Of a stretch of 64,000 nt of DNA, positions 5,896 to 64,000 are shown piece by piece; within the stretch, counting starts at the first letter, position 1; each line of letters starts with the position of its first letter. A model generated the notes under the pieces. It was not told where the DNA came from. It did not search any database and saw only the letters and a program-made list of their open reading frames with translations. A program made the translations under genes and the position numbers. This DNA is from Chiloscyllium plagiosum. Its lineage: Eukaryota. The DNA lies in NCBI RefSeq assembly GCF_004010195.1, contig NC_057718.1, positions 61,711,318-61,775,317 of the forward strand, read 5' to 3'.

Positions 5896-7701
5896 CTGTA
5901 AGTGAGACAGATAATAGCCGTAATACCTCACCTACAAGGATAAGATTTGGCGAATTAATAGACAAATATAAACCAAAGCAAATGTTTGAATTCCAGAGAT
6001 CTTAGGAATTGTCTTTTTAAGAAAATAATCAACCTTCACAAATTGCAATCACCAGCCAATAGTCTATTCATTCATTATAGGTATAGCTAGGATTGTTAAT
6101 CCTCCAGGATTACCCTGGACTCTCCAGAAATTAAAGCTAATCGCAGGACACTACAGGCAGCTACCGAGGAGAATCACCACAGGGACTTTAAACATTGCAA
6201 TCATTAAAATTCTTTGAACATTTTCTGTTTGTATTTATAAATATGGCGATATGGGAAAACATTGTTCGACTAATGGTTAAGAACCATGCATTCTGGCATT
6301 GACCAATTGACCTCTTTCAGCACTGTGCTAACTCTACTCAATCGGGTAATGAAGAGATTGTTTTTCCATTTGGCATGAGAAAGCTCTGTACAGAGATCAG
6401 TGTTTTAGGCAAACAGTGGGAGGACTGTGAGATCAGGACAATTGAAGACAATTGGCCATGCAGTAACACAGCCAGGAAGATGACCAACCAGTGGGAGGTA
6501 ACACTGAGTATAGCAATAATCAGTTATGATTCCTTTAGCATAGCAACCAAAAGTCACTGTAACTCGTCTGGCACTATTACCGTATGCTATAAAAACTTCC
6601 ATCTTCCTTTCACCTTCTACCTCTCTCCAGTGCTCGGTTGTGACTGTCACAAGTGAGTCAGTTCCAGGTATCTACCAACCTCAAACCCAAGAACAGCATA
6701 GACGTGGTTGGTTTAATTCTAATTTTACATTACCGCTTTCACCCCAAGGTGCCACTGTGCTGATTGCACTCTCTACAGCAAAGCTTAATAGAATATAGAT
6801 ATGTGTCACACAAATCTAGCATCTCTCAACGTTCACATTTGAGGTCAGGGACTTTCAGTATTCTCAGGAGCTTAATCATTTATATGAGCTAATTTCTGAC
6901 CTACTTTGTTCAGTGTCTGATTTTAGTTACGTAAAATCAATTGTATTGAATGAAAACAGTCGCCATTTCAAACAAGGTATTTCATGGTTTATGTGGCATT
7001 GAATTCAACTCATTCTTCTTCAATCAGACACACAAGAGGGGTTAAATTAGATAACTCCCAAAAACATGCACAGTGATTACTATGCATGATTAAACCATGC
7101 CTGTTGAGCACAGAGTAGGCAGCACTCCAACTCTGTGCTGCTGACTCATTTCAATTATCTTTGTGTCCAGCCAGCGCTAACTGTGTTGTTCATTGACTGG
7201 ACACATCAGCAAGGGGCCAATATCATGAGTAGTTGGCACCAAATGAAAGCTGCCTGAAGCTTTTAAAGGAGAGATGCATTGTAGCCGGAGCAGGTGCGGG
7301 GAGTCACCGTTGAAGATAATCTGACCTGAGAAAGATTGACAAATGGCAATAATGGGTAGAAAGTGGACTCTGAGGTTTTCAGACATTGCACAGGCAGCGA
7401 AACAGAGCCTGTATCATCAGGAAACAGGCAGCAAAGAGATCTGGTGAGGTTAATGTCAGGAGTTAAGGCCCATCGATATGGACAAGGTATAGTAAGAAGT
7501 ACATACCAGTGCACGACTCAATGAATGCATGTTTAAATGAAATTTTCTAATGAACTGCAGCTGCACCTCAGCAGCTTTCCAGAGATAGTCACACCCCACC
7601 ACTGCTCACACTGACAATCAGGCAACAAATCAAAATTCCTGTACCTCATCTCACAATCGCACACTGACAAAAGCTACAGGCCGAATAACCAAATCTGACC
7701 A

Positions 7702-8805
7702 TCACACACTGAACACAGTTACAGACCTGTCTCCAACACCTCACCCTCACACACTGAACACAGTTACAGACCTGTCTCCCACACCTCACCCCTCACACAC
7801 TGAACACAGTTACAGACCTGTCTCCCACACCTCACTCCTCACACTCTGCACACAGTTACAGACCTGTCTCCCACACCTCACCCTCATACACTGAACACAG
7901 TTAGAGCTGTCTCCCACACCTCACCCCTCATACACTGCACACAGTTACAGACCTGTCTCCCACACCTCACCCTCACACAGTGCACACAGTTACAGGCCTG
8001 TCTCCCACACCTCACCCCTCACACACTGAACACAGTTACAGACCTGTCCCCCACACCTCACCCCTCACACACTACACACAGTTACAGACCTGTCTCCCAC
8101 ACCTCACTCCTCACACACTGACACAGTTACAGACCTGTCTCCCACACCTCACCCCTCACACACTACACACAGTTACAGACCTGTCTCCCACACCTCACTC
8201 CTCACACACTGCACAGTTACAGACCTGTCCCCCACACCTCACCCTCACACACTGCACACAGTTACAGACCTGTCTCCCACACCTCACTCCTCACACACTG
8301 ACACAGTTACAGACCTGTCTCCCACACCTCACCCTCACACACTGCACACAGTTACAGACCTGTTTCCCACACCTCACCCTCACACACTGACACAGTTACT
8401 GACCTGTTTCCCACACCTCACTCCTCACACACTGACACAGTTACTGACCTGTTTCCCACACCTCACCCTCACACACTGAACACAGTTACAGACCTGTCTC
8501 CCACACCTCACTCCTCACACACTGACACAGTTACAGACCTGTCCCCCACACCTCACCCTCACACACTGCACACAGTTACAGAGCTGTCTCCCACACCTCA
8601 CCCCTCACACACTGAACACAGTTACAGACCTGTCCCCCACACCTCACTCCTCACACACTGACACAGTTACAGACCTGTCTCCCACACCTCACCCTCACAC
8701 ACTGCACACAGTTACAGAGCTGTCTCCCACACCTACTCTCACGCATTGAACACATTTACAGACCTGTCTCCTACATCTCACCATCACACACTGAATACAG
8801 TTATA
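7702..8805 (+). repeat. Minisatellite, unit about 40-42 bp, roughly 26 copies
   Basis: Unit acagttacagacctgtctcccacacctcacc(c)tcacacactg(a/c)ac repeated with small indels and degenerate edges. Confidence 0.98.
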
Positions 8806-8984
8806 GACATGGTATTCATGTTTGGAACATGCGGTTCCACTAAAGGTGTTACATAAATTTAAATACTTGCAGTCATAGTTTTTGGTGTTGTCTAGGATGC
8901 ACATGAAGAATCATGAATTAGGCAAAATATTGGTGAGCTGCCAGTTCTATTGCAGCAACAATTCGCAAGGTCAAAATTGACACT

Positions 8985-22348: not shown

Positions 22349-23113
22349 CCAATCATTCTAAGAGGTGATATCAAGCTATATTACTTGTGCTATTCATTGT
22401 TAGGAACAAGATGTCATCTTCCTTTCCATCAAGACATTGGGTGAGTCTTTGGATGGAGATCTTCGGACACAGAAGTCAAATATTCTTGATAGTAGTAATT
22501 ATTATTCCCGATGGATAAAATTCAAGCAACTGCAGGGTCGCACGTCTGAGGCAGTGATTACATTTTTGAAGGAGATCTTTCCAATAATTGGAGTCCCAAA
22601 TCTTGTAATCTCAGACAATGGACCACAGTTTGCTAATAATACTTTAACAAGTTAGTAGCATCATATTGATTTAACCATACTCCCAGCTTATCAGAGTACC
22701 CATCAGCCAGTGGTAAAGCTGAAAGAGCAGCGCTTTCAGTCAAAGTATAGCTTAGCTAGAAACAAAGATATTAAACTTTCATGTCTGAGCAAATCCACTT
22801 CAAAATGGTGTAGCTTCATATGAATTCTTCATGGGAAGGAGACTGAGAATTCAGCTCCCAACTCTCCCAAATAGGCCTCTACCCTGTGTCCAAGATGATG
22901 ATGTGAAAAACATGAGGGATAAAGACAAAGGTTACCTTTACAGTGAGATGTGGAACTATGACAAATGTCACAAGCCTGGAAACTACCAGACCTCCAACCA
23001 GAAGAGCCAGGTTGAATTTGAGACCAGGTTTGTTACAGACAGCACATTCACAATCATACCTCATTCAGACCAAAAGTGATATGGTGTGACAGAACAAATG
23101 TATTTTGTTTCTA

Positions 23114-23290
23114 GGAGACAATGAGCTCTGCAGATGCTGGAGATCAGAGTTGAGAGTGTGTTACTGGAAAAGCACAGCAGGTCAGGCAGCATCCTCACCT
23201 GATGAAAGGCTCCAGCCCAAAATGTGGATTTTCCTGCTCCTCGGATGCTGCCTGACCTGCTGTGCTTTTCCAGTAACACACACTCAACCT
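23114..23290. mobile_element. Penelope-derived palindromic mini-element (family A)
   Basis: Inverted arms around a decayed hammerhead (ctgatga at 23199). Approximate 15-bp TSD at 23099-23113 and 23291-23305. Confidence 0.85.
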
Positions 23291-23612
23291 CATATCTTGT
23301 TTCTACACAAGAAGCAACTTTCTACACAATTGAAGCAGTCATCAGTGCAGCAAACAGACCAGAGATGGTGTGTACATTGACAGAGCCAGATGACAGCCTG
23401 ATTGCTGACCCAGAGTTATCTGTCAATTATCCTTCCATCTAGCAAAGTCCAGGACACTGCATTCCCAAACTTCACCAAATGGAGCAAAGAACACATTCAA
23501 GTACATTAGTGAAACCACCACACCCAGTTATCATTGTAAAAAAGCAAATCAGAGACTTAGGAGAGATGTCATAATATGGGTAAAATAAGGGACTTAGGTT
23601 GGGATGGGTGGG

Positions 23613-31581: not shown

Positions 31582-34131
31582 AGGGGAGGCAATGGTGTAG
31601 TGATATTATTGCTAAACTAAAAATTGCAGAAACACATCTAATATTCTGGGTACGAATCCTGCCATGGCAGATGGGGGAATTTGAATTCAATTTTTTTAAA
31701 AATCTGGAATCAAGAATCTATTGATGACCACAGAAAAAGCCCATCTGGTTCACAGATATCCATCAGGAAATTGCCGTCTTCACCTCCTCAGGCCTACATG
31801 TGACTCCAGACCTGTAGCAAAGTAGTTGCCCTTCAATTGCTCTCTGAAATGATCTGGCAAGCCATTCAGTTATATCAATCACTACAAAGTCTTAAAGAAA
31901 TGAAACCAGATAGCTACCCTGGCAGAAACAACCCTGTCGACCCTGAAAAGTCTTCCTTACTAACATTTTTGGCACAAGCCTCAAGTTGGGAGAGCTGTCC
32001 CACAGACTAGTCAAGCTACAGCGGCAAGACAGACCCAGCAGGGGTGGTACAGTGGTATAACGTTGGGTGGGAGTTGGCCTGGGAGTCCTCAACTTTGACT
32101 CCAGATCCCTAGGAGAATGGGCAAGGAAACCTCCTACTAATGATCATGTATCAACCTCCCTCAGCTATGAATTGGTGCTTCTCCATTTTGAGCAACACAT
32201 GGGAGGAAGCACTGAGGATAGTAAGGGGACAAAATCTACTCTGGTTGAGGGATTTTAATGTCCACCACCAAGAGTGGCTCAGCAGTAATACTACTGATCT
32301 AGCTCATCAGATCCTAAAGGATATAGCTGTGAAACTGGGTGAGCAACAAGTGGTGAGGAAACCAACAAGAAGGAAAAATATATTTGACTTCATCCTTATC
32401 AATCTGTCGGCTGCAGATGTATCTGTCCATGACAGTATTGGTAAGAGAGACCACCGCACAGTCCTTGTGGAGACGAAGTCTCACCTTCATCTTGAGAATA
32501 ACCTCCATTGTGTTGTGTAGCACCATCACCGTGCTAAACAGAGAGATCTAGCAACTCAGACTGGACATCTATGAGGTGCTTAGGCCATCAGCAGCAGCAG
32601 AATTGCACTCCAGCATAACATGCAATGTCATGGTCAAGTATATCCCCTACTTAACCATTACCATCAAGCCAGAGGATCAATCCTGGTTCAATAGTGAATG
32701 CAGGAGGGCATGCCAGGAGCAGCACCTGGCATACCTGAAGACGAGGTGTTAACCTAGTGAAGTCACCAAACAGGACTACTTGCATGCCAAACAACACAAG
32801 CAACAAGTGGTAGAGTTAAGTGAGCCCATAACCAGCAGATCAGATCTAAGCTCTGCAGTTCTGCCACATCTAGTTGCCAATAGTGGTGAACAAATAAACA
32901 ACTTACTGAAGGAGAAGACTGTACAAATAACCCCATCCTCAGTGATGGAAGAGCCCAACACATCAATACAAAAGATAAGTCTGAAGCTGTTGCAGCAATC
33001 ATCAGCCAGAAGTGCGATGTGGATGGCTATGGCTCCTGACAACATTCCAGCAATAGTACTGAAGACTTGTGCTCCAGAACTTACCATTCTCCTAAGCAAG
33101 CTTTTCTAGTACAGTTACAACATTGCTATCTATCCAACAATATGGAAAATTGCTCAAGTATGCTTTGGACATAAAAAGCAGGACAAATCCACCCTAGCCA
33201 ATTACTGCCCCATCAGTAAAGTAATGAGAGATGTCATCAACAGTGCTATCAAGCAACTCCTGCTTAGCAATAATCTGTTCAGTGGCGTTCAGTTTGAGTT
33301 CCACCGGGGCCACTCAGCCCCTGACCTCGTTACAGCCTTGGTTCAAACGTGGACAAAAGAGCTGAATTCCAAAGGTGAGCTGAGATTGACAGCCCTTGAC
33401 ATCAAGCTGCATTTGACCAAGTGTGGCATCAGAGAGCCCTAGCAAAACTAGTATCAGGGGCAAGCTCTTCACTAGTTGGAGCTATACCTTGCACACAGAG
33501 GGACAGTTATGGCTGTTGGAGGTCAGTCTTCTCAGTTCAAGGACATCTCTGCAGGAGTTCCTCAGGGTGGTGTCCTAGGTCTAACCATCTTCAGTTGCTT
33601 CATCAATGACCTTCCCTCCATCATAAGGTCAGAATTGGGCATGTTCACTGATGGTTACACAATATTCAGTACCAGTCATAGAGATGTACAGCACAGAAAC
33701 AGACCCTTCGGTCCAACTCATCCATGCTGACCAGATATCCTCAATTAATTTAGTCCCATTTGCCACCACATGGCCCATATCCATCTAAACCCTTCTTATT
33801 CATATACCCATCCAGATGCCTTCCATACACACATCAACCTCTGCATGAAAACGTTGCCCTTTAAGTTCTTTTTAAATCTTTCCCCTCTCACCCTAAACCT
33901 ATGCCCTCTAGTTCTGGATTCACACACCCTCCTCAGATACTGAAGCAGTCCATTTCAAATGCAACAACAGCTGGACAATTTCCAGGCTTGGGCTGACAAG
34001 TGGCAAGTAACATTTGTACTACACAAATGCCAGGCTATGACCATCATCAGCAAGAGATAGTCTAACCACCACCCCTTGATATTCAACGGTGTTACCATCT
34101 CCACTATCAACATCCTGGGGGTCATCATTGA
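31582..34131 (+). mobile_element. Older CR1/L2-type LINE with tRNA-like 5' end, APE and RT
   Basis: APE YQPP, DFNVHH, PTR and DH motifs; RT APDNIP, QFEF, GVPQGGVLG. 5' end tggtgtagtg...gggtacgaatcc. Confidence 0.88.
33677..33930 (-). mobile_element. Young CR1 3' end nested in the older LINE
   Basis: tcatagagatgtacagcacagaaacagaccc is the reverse complement of the 3060-3120 tail. Confidence 0.92.
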
Positions 34132-35418
34132 TTAGGTGCGGGATATGGACGAGATGCGTTGGAGGGCATCTTTAACCACGTGGGAAGGGATATTGCGGTC
34201 TCTAAAGAAGGAGGCCATCTGGTGTGTTCTATGGTGGAACCGCTCCTCCTGGGAGCAGATACGGCGGAGGCGGAGGAATTGGGAATACGGGATGGCATTT
34301 TTGCAAGGGATAGGGTGGGAAGAGATGTAATCCAGGTAGCTGTGGGCGTCAGTGAGTTTGTAGAAATTCCCAATTCCTCCACCTCCGCCGTATCTGCTCC
34401 CAGGAGGACCAGTTCCACCATAGAACACACCAGATGGCCTCCTTCTTTAGAGACCGCAATTTCCCTTCCCACGTGGTTAAAGATGCCCTCCAACGCATCT
34501 TGTCCACATCCCGCACCTCCGCCCTCAGACCCAACCCCTCCAACCGCAACAAGGACAGAACGTCCCTGGTGCTCACCTTCCACCCTACCAACCTTCGCAT
34601 AAACCAAATCATCCGCCGACATTTCCGCCACCTCCAAACAGACCCCACCACCAGGGATATATTTCCCTCCCCACCCCTTTCCGCCTTCCGCAAAGACCGT
34701 TCCCTCCGTGACTACCTGGTCAGGTCCACGCCCCCCTACAACCCACCCTCCCATCCTGGCACCTTCCCCTGCCACGGCAGGAACTGTAAAACCTGCGCCC
34801 ACACCTTCTCCCTCACCTCCATCCAAGGCCCTAAAGGAGCTTCCACAGTTTTACTTGCACATCCACTAATATCATTTATTGTATCCGTTGCTCCCGATGC
34901 GGTCTCCTCTACATCGGGGAGACTGGGCGCCTCCTAGCAGAGTGCTTTAGGGAACATCTCCGAGACACCCGCACCAATCAACCAAACCGCCCTGTGGCCC
35001 AACATTTCAACTCCCCCTCCCACTCTGCCGAGGATATGGAGGTGCTGGGCCTCCTCCACCGCCGCTCCCTCACCACCAGACGCATGGAAGAAGAACGCCT
35101 CATCTTCCGCCTCGGAACACTTCAACCCCAGGGCATCAATGTGGACTTCAACAGCTTCCTCATTTCCCCTTCCCCCACCTCATCCTAGTTTCTAACCTCC
35201 ATCTCAACACTGTCCCCTTGACCTGTCCGGACTTGTCCAACCTGCCCAGCTCATTTTCCACCTATCCACTCCACCCTCTCCTCCCTGACCTCCTGATGAA
35301 GGGCTTTTGCCCGAAACGTTGATTTTGCCTGTCCTCGGATGCTGCCTGAATTGCTGTGCTCTTCCAGCACCACTGATCCAGAATCTGGTTTCCAGCATCT
35401 GCAGTCATTGTTTTTACC
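34132..35418 (+). mobile_element. Young Penelope-like element with inverted 5' segment
   Basis: RT C-terminus (SYLDY.SSHP..CKNAIPYSQFLRLRRICS) lies on the minus strand at 34132-34364. The plus-strand part has CHGRNCKTC, GIY-YIG NIIYCIRCSRCGLLYIGET, VAQHFN, LQPQGIN and then the pLTR. Confidence 0.95.
35291..35322 (+). ncRNA. Minimal hammerhead ribozyme motif in Penelope pLTR
   Basis: CUGAUGA-A-GGGC-UUUU-GCCC-GAAA-CGU-U. Perfect stem II and ACGU palindrome; only 2-bp stem I. Confidence 0.7.
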
Positions 35419-54579: not shown

Positions 54580-55411
54580 AGTGACAGACTTGGCTGGAAC
54601 TGAATGGAAGGAGGCCAGGCCCTAGACTTGCCAATGTACAATTTTGGGTTCATATTAACTAGCAAAGAACTAGAGTAGTCCCATTGGAGCCTGAGGCTAC
54701 ATCTTGCTAAAAGAGAGCTGCCGAGGTGAAACGCCCCCCAACGTCCCAAGGAGGAAGCCTGAGGAGTTCTGGTTTTGATCCAAGAAATCTGTCTGCTTTG
54801 GTATTTCTGAGACTTTGTTTCAAATCTGGCCTCACAATTTCCTCTCTGTCTCAACAGCATACAACTCTTCTGATGGGGCCGTTAGGACTCTAGAGCTGCC
54901 AGCACAACCAGAGGGCACTGGCTGTATTTAATTAGTTAGTAAACTTGCAAATGGTCAAGTAAGCTTGCAAATGGCAAAGGTTATACCAGCCTCACTACTC
55001 TCCAGTGTGGGCTCAGGTATCCCATTTGACTCTGACAATAGCGTCCCAAAGCACATGAATATCTGTTCCTCTGAATCTTGGATGTCACCCCCATTAGCTT
55101 TCCACCCTCCCCTGTCCTTCTCTCCTGCCTCCCAACCTAAATGAAAATCCATGCAATCTTTATCCCCATAACTTGCCTTACACATCCTGATACAATGCAG
55201 GAGAACCAAGATTTGGGAACAACAAAATTGAGACTGAATTAAACTAAATGTAGTGAATTCTAGCAAAAAAAAAGAGTTAAGGAATATGGACTTATATTTT
55301 GATTTTATTGTACAACAAAACTAAAATTATTCTTTACTCAAATCAATATAGTCCCCACACAGGATGAAAACTGAGTGGCAAAGGAATTCTTTTGACTCAT
55401 GTGTCATAATA

Positions 55412-55578
55412 GCTGAAAATGTATTGCTGGAAAAGCATAGCAGGTCAGGCAGCATCCAAGGAGCAGGAGAATCGACGTTTCGGGCATGAGCCCTTCTTCA
55501 GGATGCTGCCTGACCTGCTGCGCTTTTCCAGCAACACATTTTCAGCTCTGATCTCCAGCATCTGCAGTCCTCACTTTT
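55412..55578. mobile_element. Penelope-derived palindromic mini-element (family A), young
   Basis: Inverted arms; perfect 15-bp TSD tcatgtgtcataata at 55397-55411 and 55579-55593. Confidence 0.92.
55471..55504 (-). ncRNA. Minimal hammerhead ribozyme motif, best-preserved copy
   Basis: AUC-CUGAAGA-A-GGGC-UCAU-GCCC-GAAA-CGU-C-GAU: 3-bp stem I, 4-bp stem II, ACGU palindrome, GUC site. Confidence 0.8.
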
Positions 55579-56020
55579 TCATGTGTCATAATAACCAATG
55601 TATCTTATTTAAAAGATCCAAATTGCTGTCAGTGGTGGCCTTCACCACAGACCACTTCAGAATAATCATTGCTTGTTGAATGTGTATTGAGAACAAATTT
55701 CATTAACTTTCTAAGCACAATGATCCAAGTTTACAACTGTACTTCAGAACACCCAGAGAAAATTCAAAATACAAAACCTCCCAATTTGTGATCTGCCAAA
55801 GTGCTGTCCTATACCATAAATTCAAGATCTTTGAGAATTACTAACCACCAGCTAAAGCCAGCAGGCCATTCCTAAACAAAGTAGGTCAGAGTTTAATTTA
55901 ATACATTGGAAAAATAGGATAGTTGAGAAAAATCACCACTAAAAAGGATCATTCTGCAAACCAGTCTTCTTCAGTTTGGGGGAAAAAACAACTAGTAAAC
56001 TGCCCCAACACTATCATCAG

Positions 56021-56246
56021 TTGAAAGTGTGGTGCTGGAAAAGCACAGCAGGTCACACAGCATCCGAGGAGCAGGTGAATCAATATTTCAGGCATAAGCC
56101 CTTCATCAGAAAGTCCTCATTCCTGATGAAGGGCTTATGCCTGAAATGGTGACTCTCCTACTTCTCAGATGCTGCCTGACCTGCTGTGCTTTTCCTGCAT
56201 CACACTTTTGTCTCTGATCCCCAGCATCTGCAGTCCTCATTTGTCC
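56021..56246. mobile_element. Penelope-derived palindromic mini-element (family A), two hammerhead relics
   Basis: Arms inverted about 56110-56121; ctgatga cores on both strands; decayed 13-bp flanking repeat. Confidence 0.85.
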
Positions 56247-56295
56247 ACATCACCATCAGCATCAGCATAGATTCCACCATTTCCCAATTGCCTTT

Positions 56296-63420: not shown

Positions 63421-63842
63421 CTGTAAGAAATAGAACTCTGCAGCAAGTTGGAACCAGAATCTCAGTGATTGTACAATGACAAGGTCAAAAGTCTACTTGG
63501 ATGTTGGTCAACTGACTTGTTTTAACATACATTAATTTCTACTGACCTATGTATATTATGAAGACAAATTCATGAATTTTAGAATCATCTAAGATAAAAG
63601 AAGTTGCAAATGTCCATCCATCTTTAGGGTAGCAATTCACCTACTTATCCTGGTATTTTGCATATTAAATGCACAAAACTGTATCAAAATACATGAAGAA
63701 ATGTATGAATGAGCATAAAATGGTAAAATGTGCACACCAAATTAAAAATTGGAAATTAAATTTATAATTTTTTCTCTGACACTTGAAGTGTTGTGCTGCC
63801 AGCCCTTAAAAACATTTTACATAGCACAGTGTGTACAAAGTC

Positions 63843-64000
63843 AAGAGTGTGATGCTGGAAAAGCACAGCAGGTCAGGCAACATCCAAGGAGTAGGAGAAT
63901 CAACATTTCAGGCATAAGCCCTTCATCAGGAATCCTGATGCTGGGCTTATGCCCGAAACGTCAATTCATCTGCTCCTGGGATGCTGCCTGACCTGCAGTG
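63843..64000. mobile_element. Penelope-derived palindromic mini-element (family A), runs off the window
   Basis: Arms inverted about 63931-63933; hammerhead boxes on both strands. Confidence 0.85.

Follow-up and report, generated by a model that had tools for sequence, protein, structure and literature searches.

Positions 55412-55578 of the analysed stretch of 64,000 nucleotides (hereafter the window) are occupied by a 167-bp insertion that lies between perfect 15-nt target site duplications (TSDs), the left copy TCATGTGTCATAATA at 55397-55411 and the right copy TCATGTGTCATAATA at 55579-55593, which are 100% identical to each other (repeat family D1). The insertion contains two inverted arms of 46 nt each (55412-55457 and 55502-55547) that differ at three positions, all of them transitions and all private to this copy. 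The length of the insertion, the perfect 15-bp duplication and the inverted arms, all pointed out in the first-pass annotation, are confirmed by direct reading of the window. The hammerhead-bearing arm (55412-55503, minus strand) originates in a Penelope-like element (PLE), namely in the terminal region denoted S, defined here as the sense sequence from the hammerhead through ...CACTTTCTCC; it begins 2 nt upstream of the hammerhead base C3 (at 55503) and runs to an end in ...CATTTTCAGC (at 55412), which we call the no-tail end. The same no-tail end recurs in the simple copies at loci L032 and L042 and in 54 of the 93 genomic copies of the junction that are described below. The second arm (55501-55547, plus strand) comprises S from GGATGCTGCC to ...CATTTTCAGC, forms the inverted repeat with 55412-55457 and continues into a tail of 31 nt, TCTGATCTCCAGCATCTGCAGTCCTCACTTTT (55548-55578, plus strand), that is found on this arm only, has no partner in the other arm and stops approximately 4 nt before the usual ...CTTTCTCC end. 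The arms meet at 55501-55503, where a 3-base GGA/TCC microhomology is common to both, and GGA occurs in the parent sequence S only once, at this junction. Read on the minus strand, the unit starts with the tail end and comprises the reverse complement of S as far as GGATGC; S itself then begins 2 nt upstream of C3 and continues up to the no-tail end. The 167-bp unit is thus made of two overlapping pieces of the PLE terminal region placed head to head, and it has the hallmarks of an EN+ PLE insertion, namely the 15-nt TSD, two truncated arms in inverted orientation and the 31-nt tail on one of them.

The minus strand at 55471-55503 carries a minimal hammerhead (min-hammerhead) motif, and the reading AUC CUGAAGA A GGGC UCAU GCCC GAAA CG U C GAU that had been given for it is reproduced letter for letter. 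In the hammerhead numbering, C3 is at 55501, A9 at 55495, the extra A at 55494, helix II (GGGC-UCAU-GCCC) at 55493-55482, G12-A14 at 55481-55479, A15.1-C15.2-G16.2-U16.1 at 55478-55475 and C17 at 55474; the predicted cut site lies between 55474 and 55473. The complete core is present, with C3 U4 G5 A6 N7 G8 A9, G12 A13 A14 and C17, a cleavage-site base other than G. Position N7, which is free in hammerheads, is A in this copy and U in older copies within the window. The unpaired A at 55494 is followed by the GGGC/GCCC pairing, and helix III is the loopless ACGU, palindromic at 15.2-16.2. As described in the accessible portion of PMC4209133, the min-hammerheads in the pseudo-LTRs of metazoan PLEs combine the core boxes with one unpaired base that separates position 9 from 10.1, a conserved pair of G10.1 with C11.1 and a palindromic 15.2-16.2 helix without a loop, such that a dimer is needed for activity; in vitro, they cleave at a low level, as dimers. 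To judge from its sequence, the motif of 55471-55503 is of this published kind, with every listed feature matched. The suggestion that the loopless palindromic helix III could form only in a dimer agrees with the sequence and with this published feature, and the extra A after A9, which had been singled out in the first-pass annotation, is not an anomaly but a conserved trait of PLE min-hammerheads (PMC4209133, accessible portion).

The likeness to the motifs described in the same portion of PMC4209133 extends to the short helix I and the location in a terminal repeat, and, for the family represented in the window, to the huge copy numbers and to the predominance of truncated copies that contain a single motif; motifs paired on opposite strands at distances of 100-700 bp are reported there as well. 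Two differences are apparent: helix II has 4 bp here versus 6-8 bp in the min-hammerheads drawn for Schistosoma and Drosophila, and the hosts named in that portion of the paper include no cartilaginous fish, unlike the source genome here. An Rfam scan of positions 55000-56000 at E values up to 10 matched no hammerhead family. Rfam hammerhead models contain helix III, which is absent from min-hammerheads, so that no such match is expected.

In the predicted RNA fold of the unit (-96 kcal/mol, z -11.2), a 48-bp stem is capped by an apical loop that contains the hammerhead region; C3, together with the three preceding bases of helix I, is engaged in pairing with the opposite arm (P 0.996). A secondary structure compatible with the hammerhead is approximately 5 kcal/mol costlier (-90.9 versus -96.0 kcal/mol), and the stem is therefore a handicap for hammerhead folding, not a bar to it. 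Furthermore, the unit contains a single motif, and helix III requires a partner. Such a stable hairpin could also be a host small-RNA gene, akin to a miRNA precursor, that happens to resemble the repeat, and Rfam miRNA models do align to the arms at 20-43 bits. All these scores are far below the respective gathering cut-offs (42.8 versus 103 bits for the best one), and the matches, which we dismiss as chance, are due only to the long perfect stem. Tens of thousands of relatives mark the sequence as a repeat, and it has a TSD of its own; we regard a miRNA-like gene as exceedingly improbable. The hammerhead at 55412-55578 is predicted to be a passenger that came along with the longer arm and has no role in the insertion. 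For the PLE of a lizard, hammerhead mutants had no effect on insertion in vitro (PMC11167929). Among the 93 junction copies, the core, helix II and GUC are intact in 49, and the decay of the remainder is what would be expected of neutral, CpG-rich copies. One junction copy (L047, G000:C1:86010519-86010945) contains in its forward arm two hammerhead motifs in direct orientation, approximately 40 nt apart, the result of a partial tandem duplication; they constitute a natural tandem pair of the type that a dimeric hammerhead would need.

The Penelope origin proposed for the unit is supported by the sequences found upstream of S. Simple copies of S are present in the window at 1-219 and 35291-35418, and the end of a GIY-YIG-type ORF (34835-35188) lies upstream of S on the same strand, a weak match with an E value of 0.0038, below the Pfam cut-off. 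At locus L039, a reverse transcriptase (RVT_1, E 5.8e-7) is encoded upstream of S, again on the same strand. The placement of S in the terminal repeat of an element with a reverse transcriptase and a GIY-YIG domain thus holds for the family but not for the copy at 55412-55578 itself; the ORF portions of the long copies L036, L037, L039, L040, L042 and L120 consist of runs of N. The region 34132-35418 of the window is a 5'-truncated long copy from a related PLE subfamily, in which the GIY-YIG-like ORF end is followed by an untranslated stretch of approximately 100 nt, then by the hammerhead and by a terminal region that has a different tail. Just upstream of this copy, at 32113-33730, there are fragments of another retroelement, which encodes an AP-type endonuclease (Exo_endo_phos_2, E 2.7e-6) together with a reverse transcriptase (RVT_1, E 6.2e-6).

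The parent sequence is extremely abundant. A CpG-intact 35-mer spanning the hammerhead has 43,252 exact matches in the 3.56-Gb genome, which is a lower bound on the number of copies, and for a 21-mer that includes the usual upstream sequence the count is 27,574. Two ends prevail on the downstream side of simple S copies: 6 of 12 end at ...CATTTTCAGC and the other 6 approximately 35 nt further, at ...CACTTTCTCC. On the upstream side, about 20 of 31 bystander copies start at most 5 nt upstream of C3. A stop only 1-2 nt before C3 is favoured, as seen in these bystander copies, in 4 of 10 sampled palindromes and in the blunt junction with 1,380 occurrences that is described below; to judge from the copy ends, this stop likely corresponds to the 5' end of the element RNA. 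Palindromic insertions are routine for the S-bearing PLE family, as 20 of the first 100 parent motifs form 10 close head-to-head pairs.

A genome search with the unit yielded 568 first-look candidates, and all 40 that were scored matched it over nearly the full length with 94-100% identity, so that the match between the unit and the genomic copies is not due to chance. At 29 other loci, the same arms meet at the same joining point and each insertion has its own TSD, with a single irregularity, a 7-nt duplication at the join in L024; TSD length varies from about 10 to 16 nt among the copies examined. The 27-mer spanning the junction occurs 93 times in the 3.56-Gb genome, its reversed control does not occur at all, and the junction copies amount to approximately 0.2% of the exact parent motifs (93 versus 43,252). 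The flanking sequences of two junction copies, L103 and L112, are common to both, which indicates a segmental duplication and not two insertions, and the total of 93 therefore includes at least one non-independent pair. We classified the ends of the 93 copies by motif, with L065 and L089 checked by eye; local alignment to a two-tailed reference was replaced by this procedure because it over-extended into the flanks and misassigned the ends. The tail/no-tail form, to which the unit at 55412-55578 belongs, accounts for 54 copies and its mirror image, no-tail/tail, for 24; in 10 copies a tail arm is combined with a forward arm shortened at varied points, 2 copies have two tails, none is without a tail, and 3 are odd.

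The insertion had also been called young, and of this description the perfect TSD stands. The copy itself differs from the column majority of the 54 copies of like form at 7 of 175 columns, close to the median of that set (8). Contigs from another sample of the same species label (X16, record 2) bridge the left border without a difference, and contigs from a different species label (X19, records 17 and 24) bridge both borders, with 5 of 171 and 8 of 196 letters differing. The insertion is present at the same site in the X19 contigs and hence predates the split of the two species labels; it is not very young. The contigs of a further run, X2, which is presumed to be RNA, extend over the repeat without its flanks and are uninformative on the locus.

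The first-pass annotation left two alternatives, a SINE-like or retrozyme-like non-autonomous element and a stereotyped truncation product, and suggested that they be told apart by asking whether palindromic copies have identical internal junctions. They do, in 93 copies, but an identical junction in many copies is by itself no proof of propagation where the parent sequence offers only one joining place, and the other properties of the copies speak against a single propagating family. The junction is carried by six parental haplotypes, defined by three linked variable sites (TTC 25, CCT 20, TCT 12, TTT 11, ATC 5 and CTT 3), all of which are present in both mirror forms. Among the first 100 of the 43,252 parent motifs, the counts are TTC 58, TTT 20, CCT 11, TCT 7 and CTT 1, the haplotype ATC being outside the reach of the search pattern used for the parent motifs. 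In a tree of 82 junction and 45 parent copies, the two types are interspersed, with 25 state changes of the junction trait; a constraint that unites all junction copies in a single clade lowers the log-likelihood by 55.4 units and is rejected by the AU test on 88 columns (p 0.021), with 11 junction copies that have no recognisable forward-arm end omitted from the tree. Two sets of identical sequences span junction and parent copies. The column majority of the hairpin arms is the same as that of the parent copies, and no private diagnostic substitution was seen in it. We also considered the differences between the two arms as a marker of a master copy and rejected them, because the three differences are private to the copy at 55412-55578 and the arms of the other copies are complementary, which makes a test for shared substitutions uninformative.

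These observations bear on the possibility that the hairpin unit itself represents a non-autonomous element, SINE-like or retrozyme-like, that is copied as a whole. Such a unit could in principle be mobilised, for a read-through transcript of either strand would hold an S-sense arm with the start site used by the PLE reverse transcriptase, and the complement of the start site at the far end would set the other boundary. A small propagating family would be expected to have one identical junction in many copies with TSDs of their own, as observed for the 93 copies, and the 10 copies with a shortened forward arm resemble 5'-truncated hairpin transcripts primed at the tail site. The haplotype CCT is over-represented among the junction copies compared to the parent sample (20 of 93 versus 11 of 100), as is TCT, and TTC is correspondingly less frequent (25 of 93 versus 58 of 100), which would fit a limited amplification of some lineages; the two sets were ascertained with different exact-match patterns. 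Moreover, the p value of 0.021 comes from 88 columns of neutrally decaying copies and is compatible with several independent hairpin masters. Elsewhere, a non-autonomous PLE derivative is known from another taxon (Chlamys MRC1; PMC8557442, in the portion accessible), and PLE-derived retrozymes have been described (bioRxiv 10.64898/2026.07.22.740005, likewise in its accessible portion). However, some dozen separate masters would have to be assumed to account for six haplotypes that all occur in both mirror forms, the single clade is rejected, identical sequences are shared by junction and parent copies, and the hairpin arms have no diagnostic substitution of their own. The RNA from which the lizard PLE is inserted extends past the start sites (PMC11167929), and the inserted copies are devoid of that part. 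The small fraction of parent motifs that the junction copies represent is another point against propagation. As for retrozymes, the accessible portion of the bioRxiv preprint 10.64898/2026.07.22.740005 describes the animal non-LTR retrozymes as short non-coding PLE-derived sequences with a type I hammerhead, in which they are like the unit, but they are tandem arrays with a hammerhead in each unit and give rise to circular RNAs, whereas the sequence at 55412-55578 is a solitary palindrome between TSDs, with one hammerhead and no tandem array, outside the definition of a retrozyme. A whole-unit mode of copying hence appears unlikely. Of the two alternatives, the truncation product is the better supported one: we consider the unit to be a dead-on-arrival PLE insertion, a stereotyped by-product that likely formed anew each time and not a member of a SINE-like or retrozyme-like family (with a probability of roughly two in three).

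How might such a by-product arise? In the model that we consider the most likely, two cDNAs would be made in one integration event, one primed on each nicked strand of the target, and subsequently joined. Synthesis of one cDNA would begin at the no-tail site and that of its partner at the tail site, and these ends would correspond to the pair of neighbouring internal sites at which reverse transcription starts in the lizard element PAc. One of the cDNAs would run to the favoured stop that lies 1-2 nt before the hammerhead. Its 3' end, ...CAGGA, could then pair with the single TCC of the other cDNA, and extension would give the observed join. Because S offers only one GGA site, the same junction would arise repeatedly. 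The nicking of both strands and the two start sites are known for the lizard PLE, the protein of which nicks and extends both DNA strands, with reverse transcription starting at two adjacent internal sites of the RNA such that the interval between them equals the genomic tail of 30-40 nt (PMC11167929). Our interpretation of the two ends as start sites is carried over from this Poseidon element by analogy.

A simpler variant would dispense with the second priming: a single cDNA could run to the 5' end of the RNA, snap back, its 3' GGA pairing with its own internal TCC, and copy itself. The unique GGA/TCC pair would be just as suitable in an intramolecular reaction, and the 24 copies of the no-tail/tail form can be interpreted as the result of synthesis from the tail site, followed by self-copying as far as the no-tail position. 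The tail/no-tail form, to which the copy in the window and the majority of the others (54 of 93) belong, cannot be produced in this way because synthesis from the no-tail site yields a cDNA that lacks the tail sequence, and hairpins with two tails, the predicted complete product of self-copying, are represented by only 2 of the 93 copies. Snap-back synthesis accordingly seems very unlikely, and we retain the joining of two cDNAs.

In the palindromes, the nature of one end predicts that of the other. Exactly one tail is present in 78 of the 80 two-ended junction copies and in 9 of 10 palindromes with other junctions, and the tenth of the latter combines a tail with an end that is 8 nt short. 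If the start sites were chosen independently, about half of the palindromes would be of the same-end type, so that independent choice leaves the nearly universal one-tail rule unexplained. As a hypothesis, the coupling of the ends could be explained if one RNA were copied from both start sites. Extending this idea, the mini-palindromes may, tentatively and with the odds somewhat against it, preserve, as genomic fossils, the traces of the second half of Penelope integration, which is still unsolved: one leader RNA would be copied twice, once per start site, with one cDNA per target strand, and the cDNAs would be joined by template switching at a short inverted microhomology, here the sole GGA. 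If this is the case, thousands of copies would provide an in vivo data set on the completion of PLE insertion, a process that has so far been studied in vitro, for one lizard element. In any event, the two fixed ends, the single tail per palindrome and the joins at inverted microhomologies put constraints on models of Penelope integration.

The layout of the unit is familiar from other retroelements. L1 twin priming yields an inverted 5' segment and a direct 3' segment with microhomology at the join and intact TSDs, in all of which it is like the unit; the second primer of L1 acts at variable internal sites, whereas the unit has two fixed sites and its segments overlap by 46 nt. Among PLE insertions themselves, inverted 5'-truncated copies with a tail often at one end only are typical (PMC8557442, accessible portion). 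In the accessible portions of PMC8557442 and PMC11167929, such insertions share with the unit the ends approximately 35 nt apart, the inverted truncated copy abutting a direct one, the single tail and the variable TSD length. Compared to them, the unit is an extreme miniature of 167 bp without an ORF, and neither the recurrent junction at a unique trinucleotide nor the near-absolute one-tail rule is stated in those portions of the two papers. A literature search returned nothing on shark PLE hammerheads or hairpin mini-insertions, and one on Penelope-like elements together with twin priming returned unrelated work only; in PMC6155905, "shark" denotes the shape of a motif and not a shark PLE hammerhead. 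The insertion at 55412-55578 is ordinary for its source genome, and as a single locus it carries little weight, because dead Penelope stubs number at least tens of thousands in this 3.56-Gb shark-type genome.

Other palindromes of the same family are joined differently, at junctions that are likewise stereotyped, which also speaks against a self-propagating lineage. One of them is a blunt head-to-head join of arms that end 1 and 2 nt upstream of C3, with 1,380 occurrences. The possibility that only the run-off cDNA end joins at the GGA site holds in part: a join of GCATCC to TGCTCCTTGG was found in 23 copies with a haplotype-restricted pattern, which implies that ends other than the run-off end are also joined at this site. 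The alternative join of GCATCC to TCATTCC is rare, with 2 copies. A further junction is common to L118 and L120, two of the 10 sampled palindromes, which are of opposite mirror forms.

The window itself contains several further hairpins. The palindromic insertion at 56019-56250 is older but belongs to the same type of element and has a hammerhead motif on each strand; its arms meet just upstream of the two motifs, and the left arm has the no-tail end and the right arm the tail. A further head-to-head pair of hammerhead-bearing arms, at 63839-64000, is interrupted by the end of the window. The hairpin at 23113-23307 is older, more diverged and in the opposite orientation, with the join 6-8 nt further upstream (GCATCC to TCACCTGATGA); its tail arm also ends at GCATCC, so that this donor point recurs in a different subfamily. 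Outside the window, locus L032 (G000:C1:166782-169802) contains, at about 1331-1598 and between TSDs, a short inverted tail piece (approximately 50 nt) that abuts a direct copy of 200 nt terminating at the no-tail end, that is, the same one-tail layout as at 55412-55578 with another junction. Finally, the window includes at 7657-8811 a tandem array with a period of approximately 45 nt and at least 14 units that are 60-100% identical.
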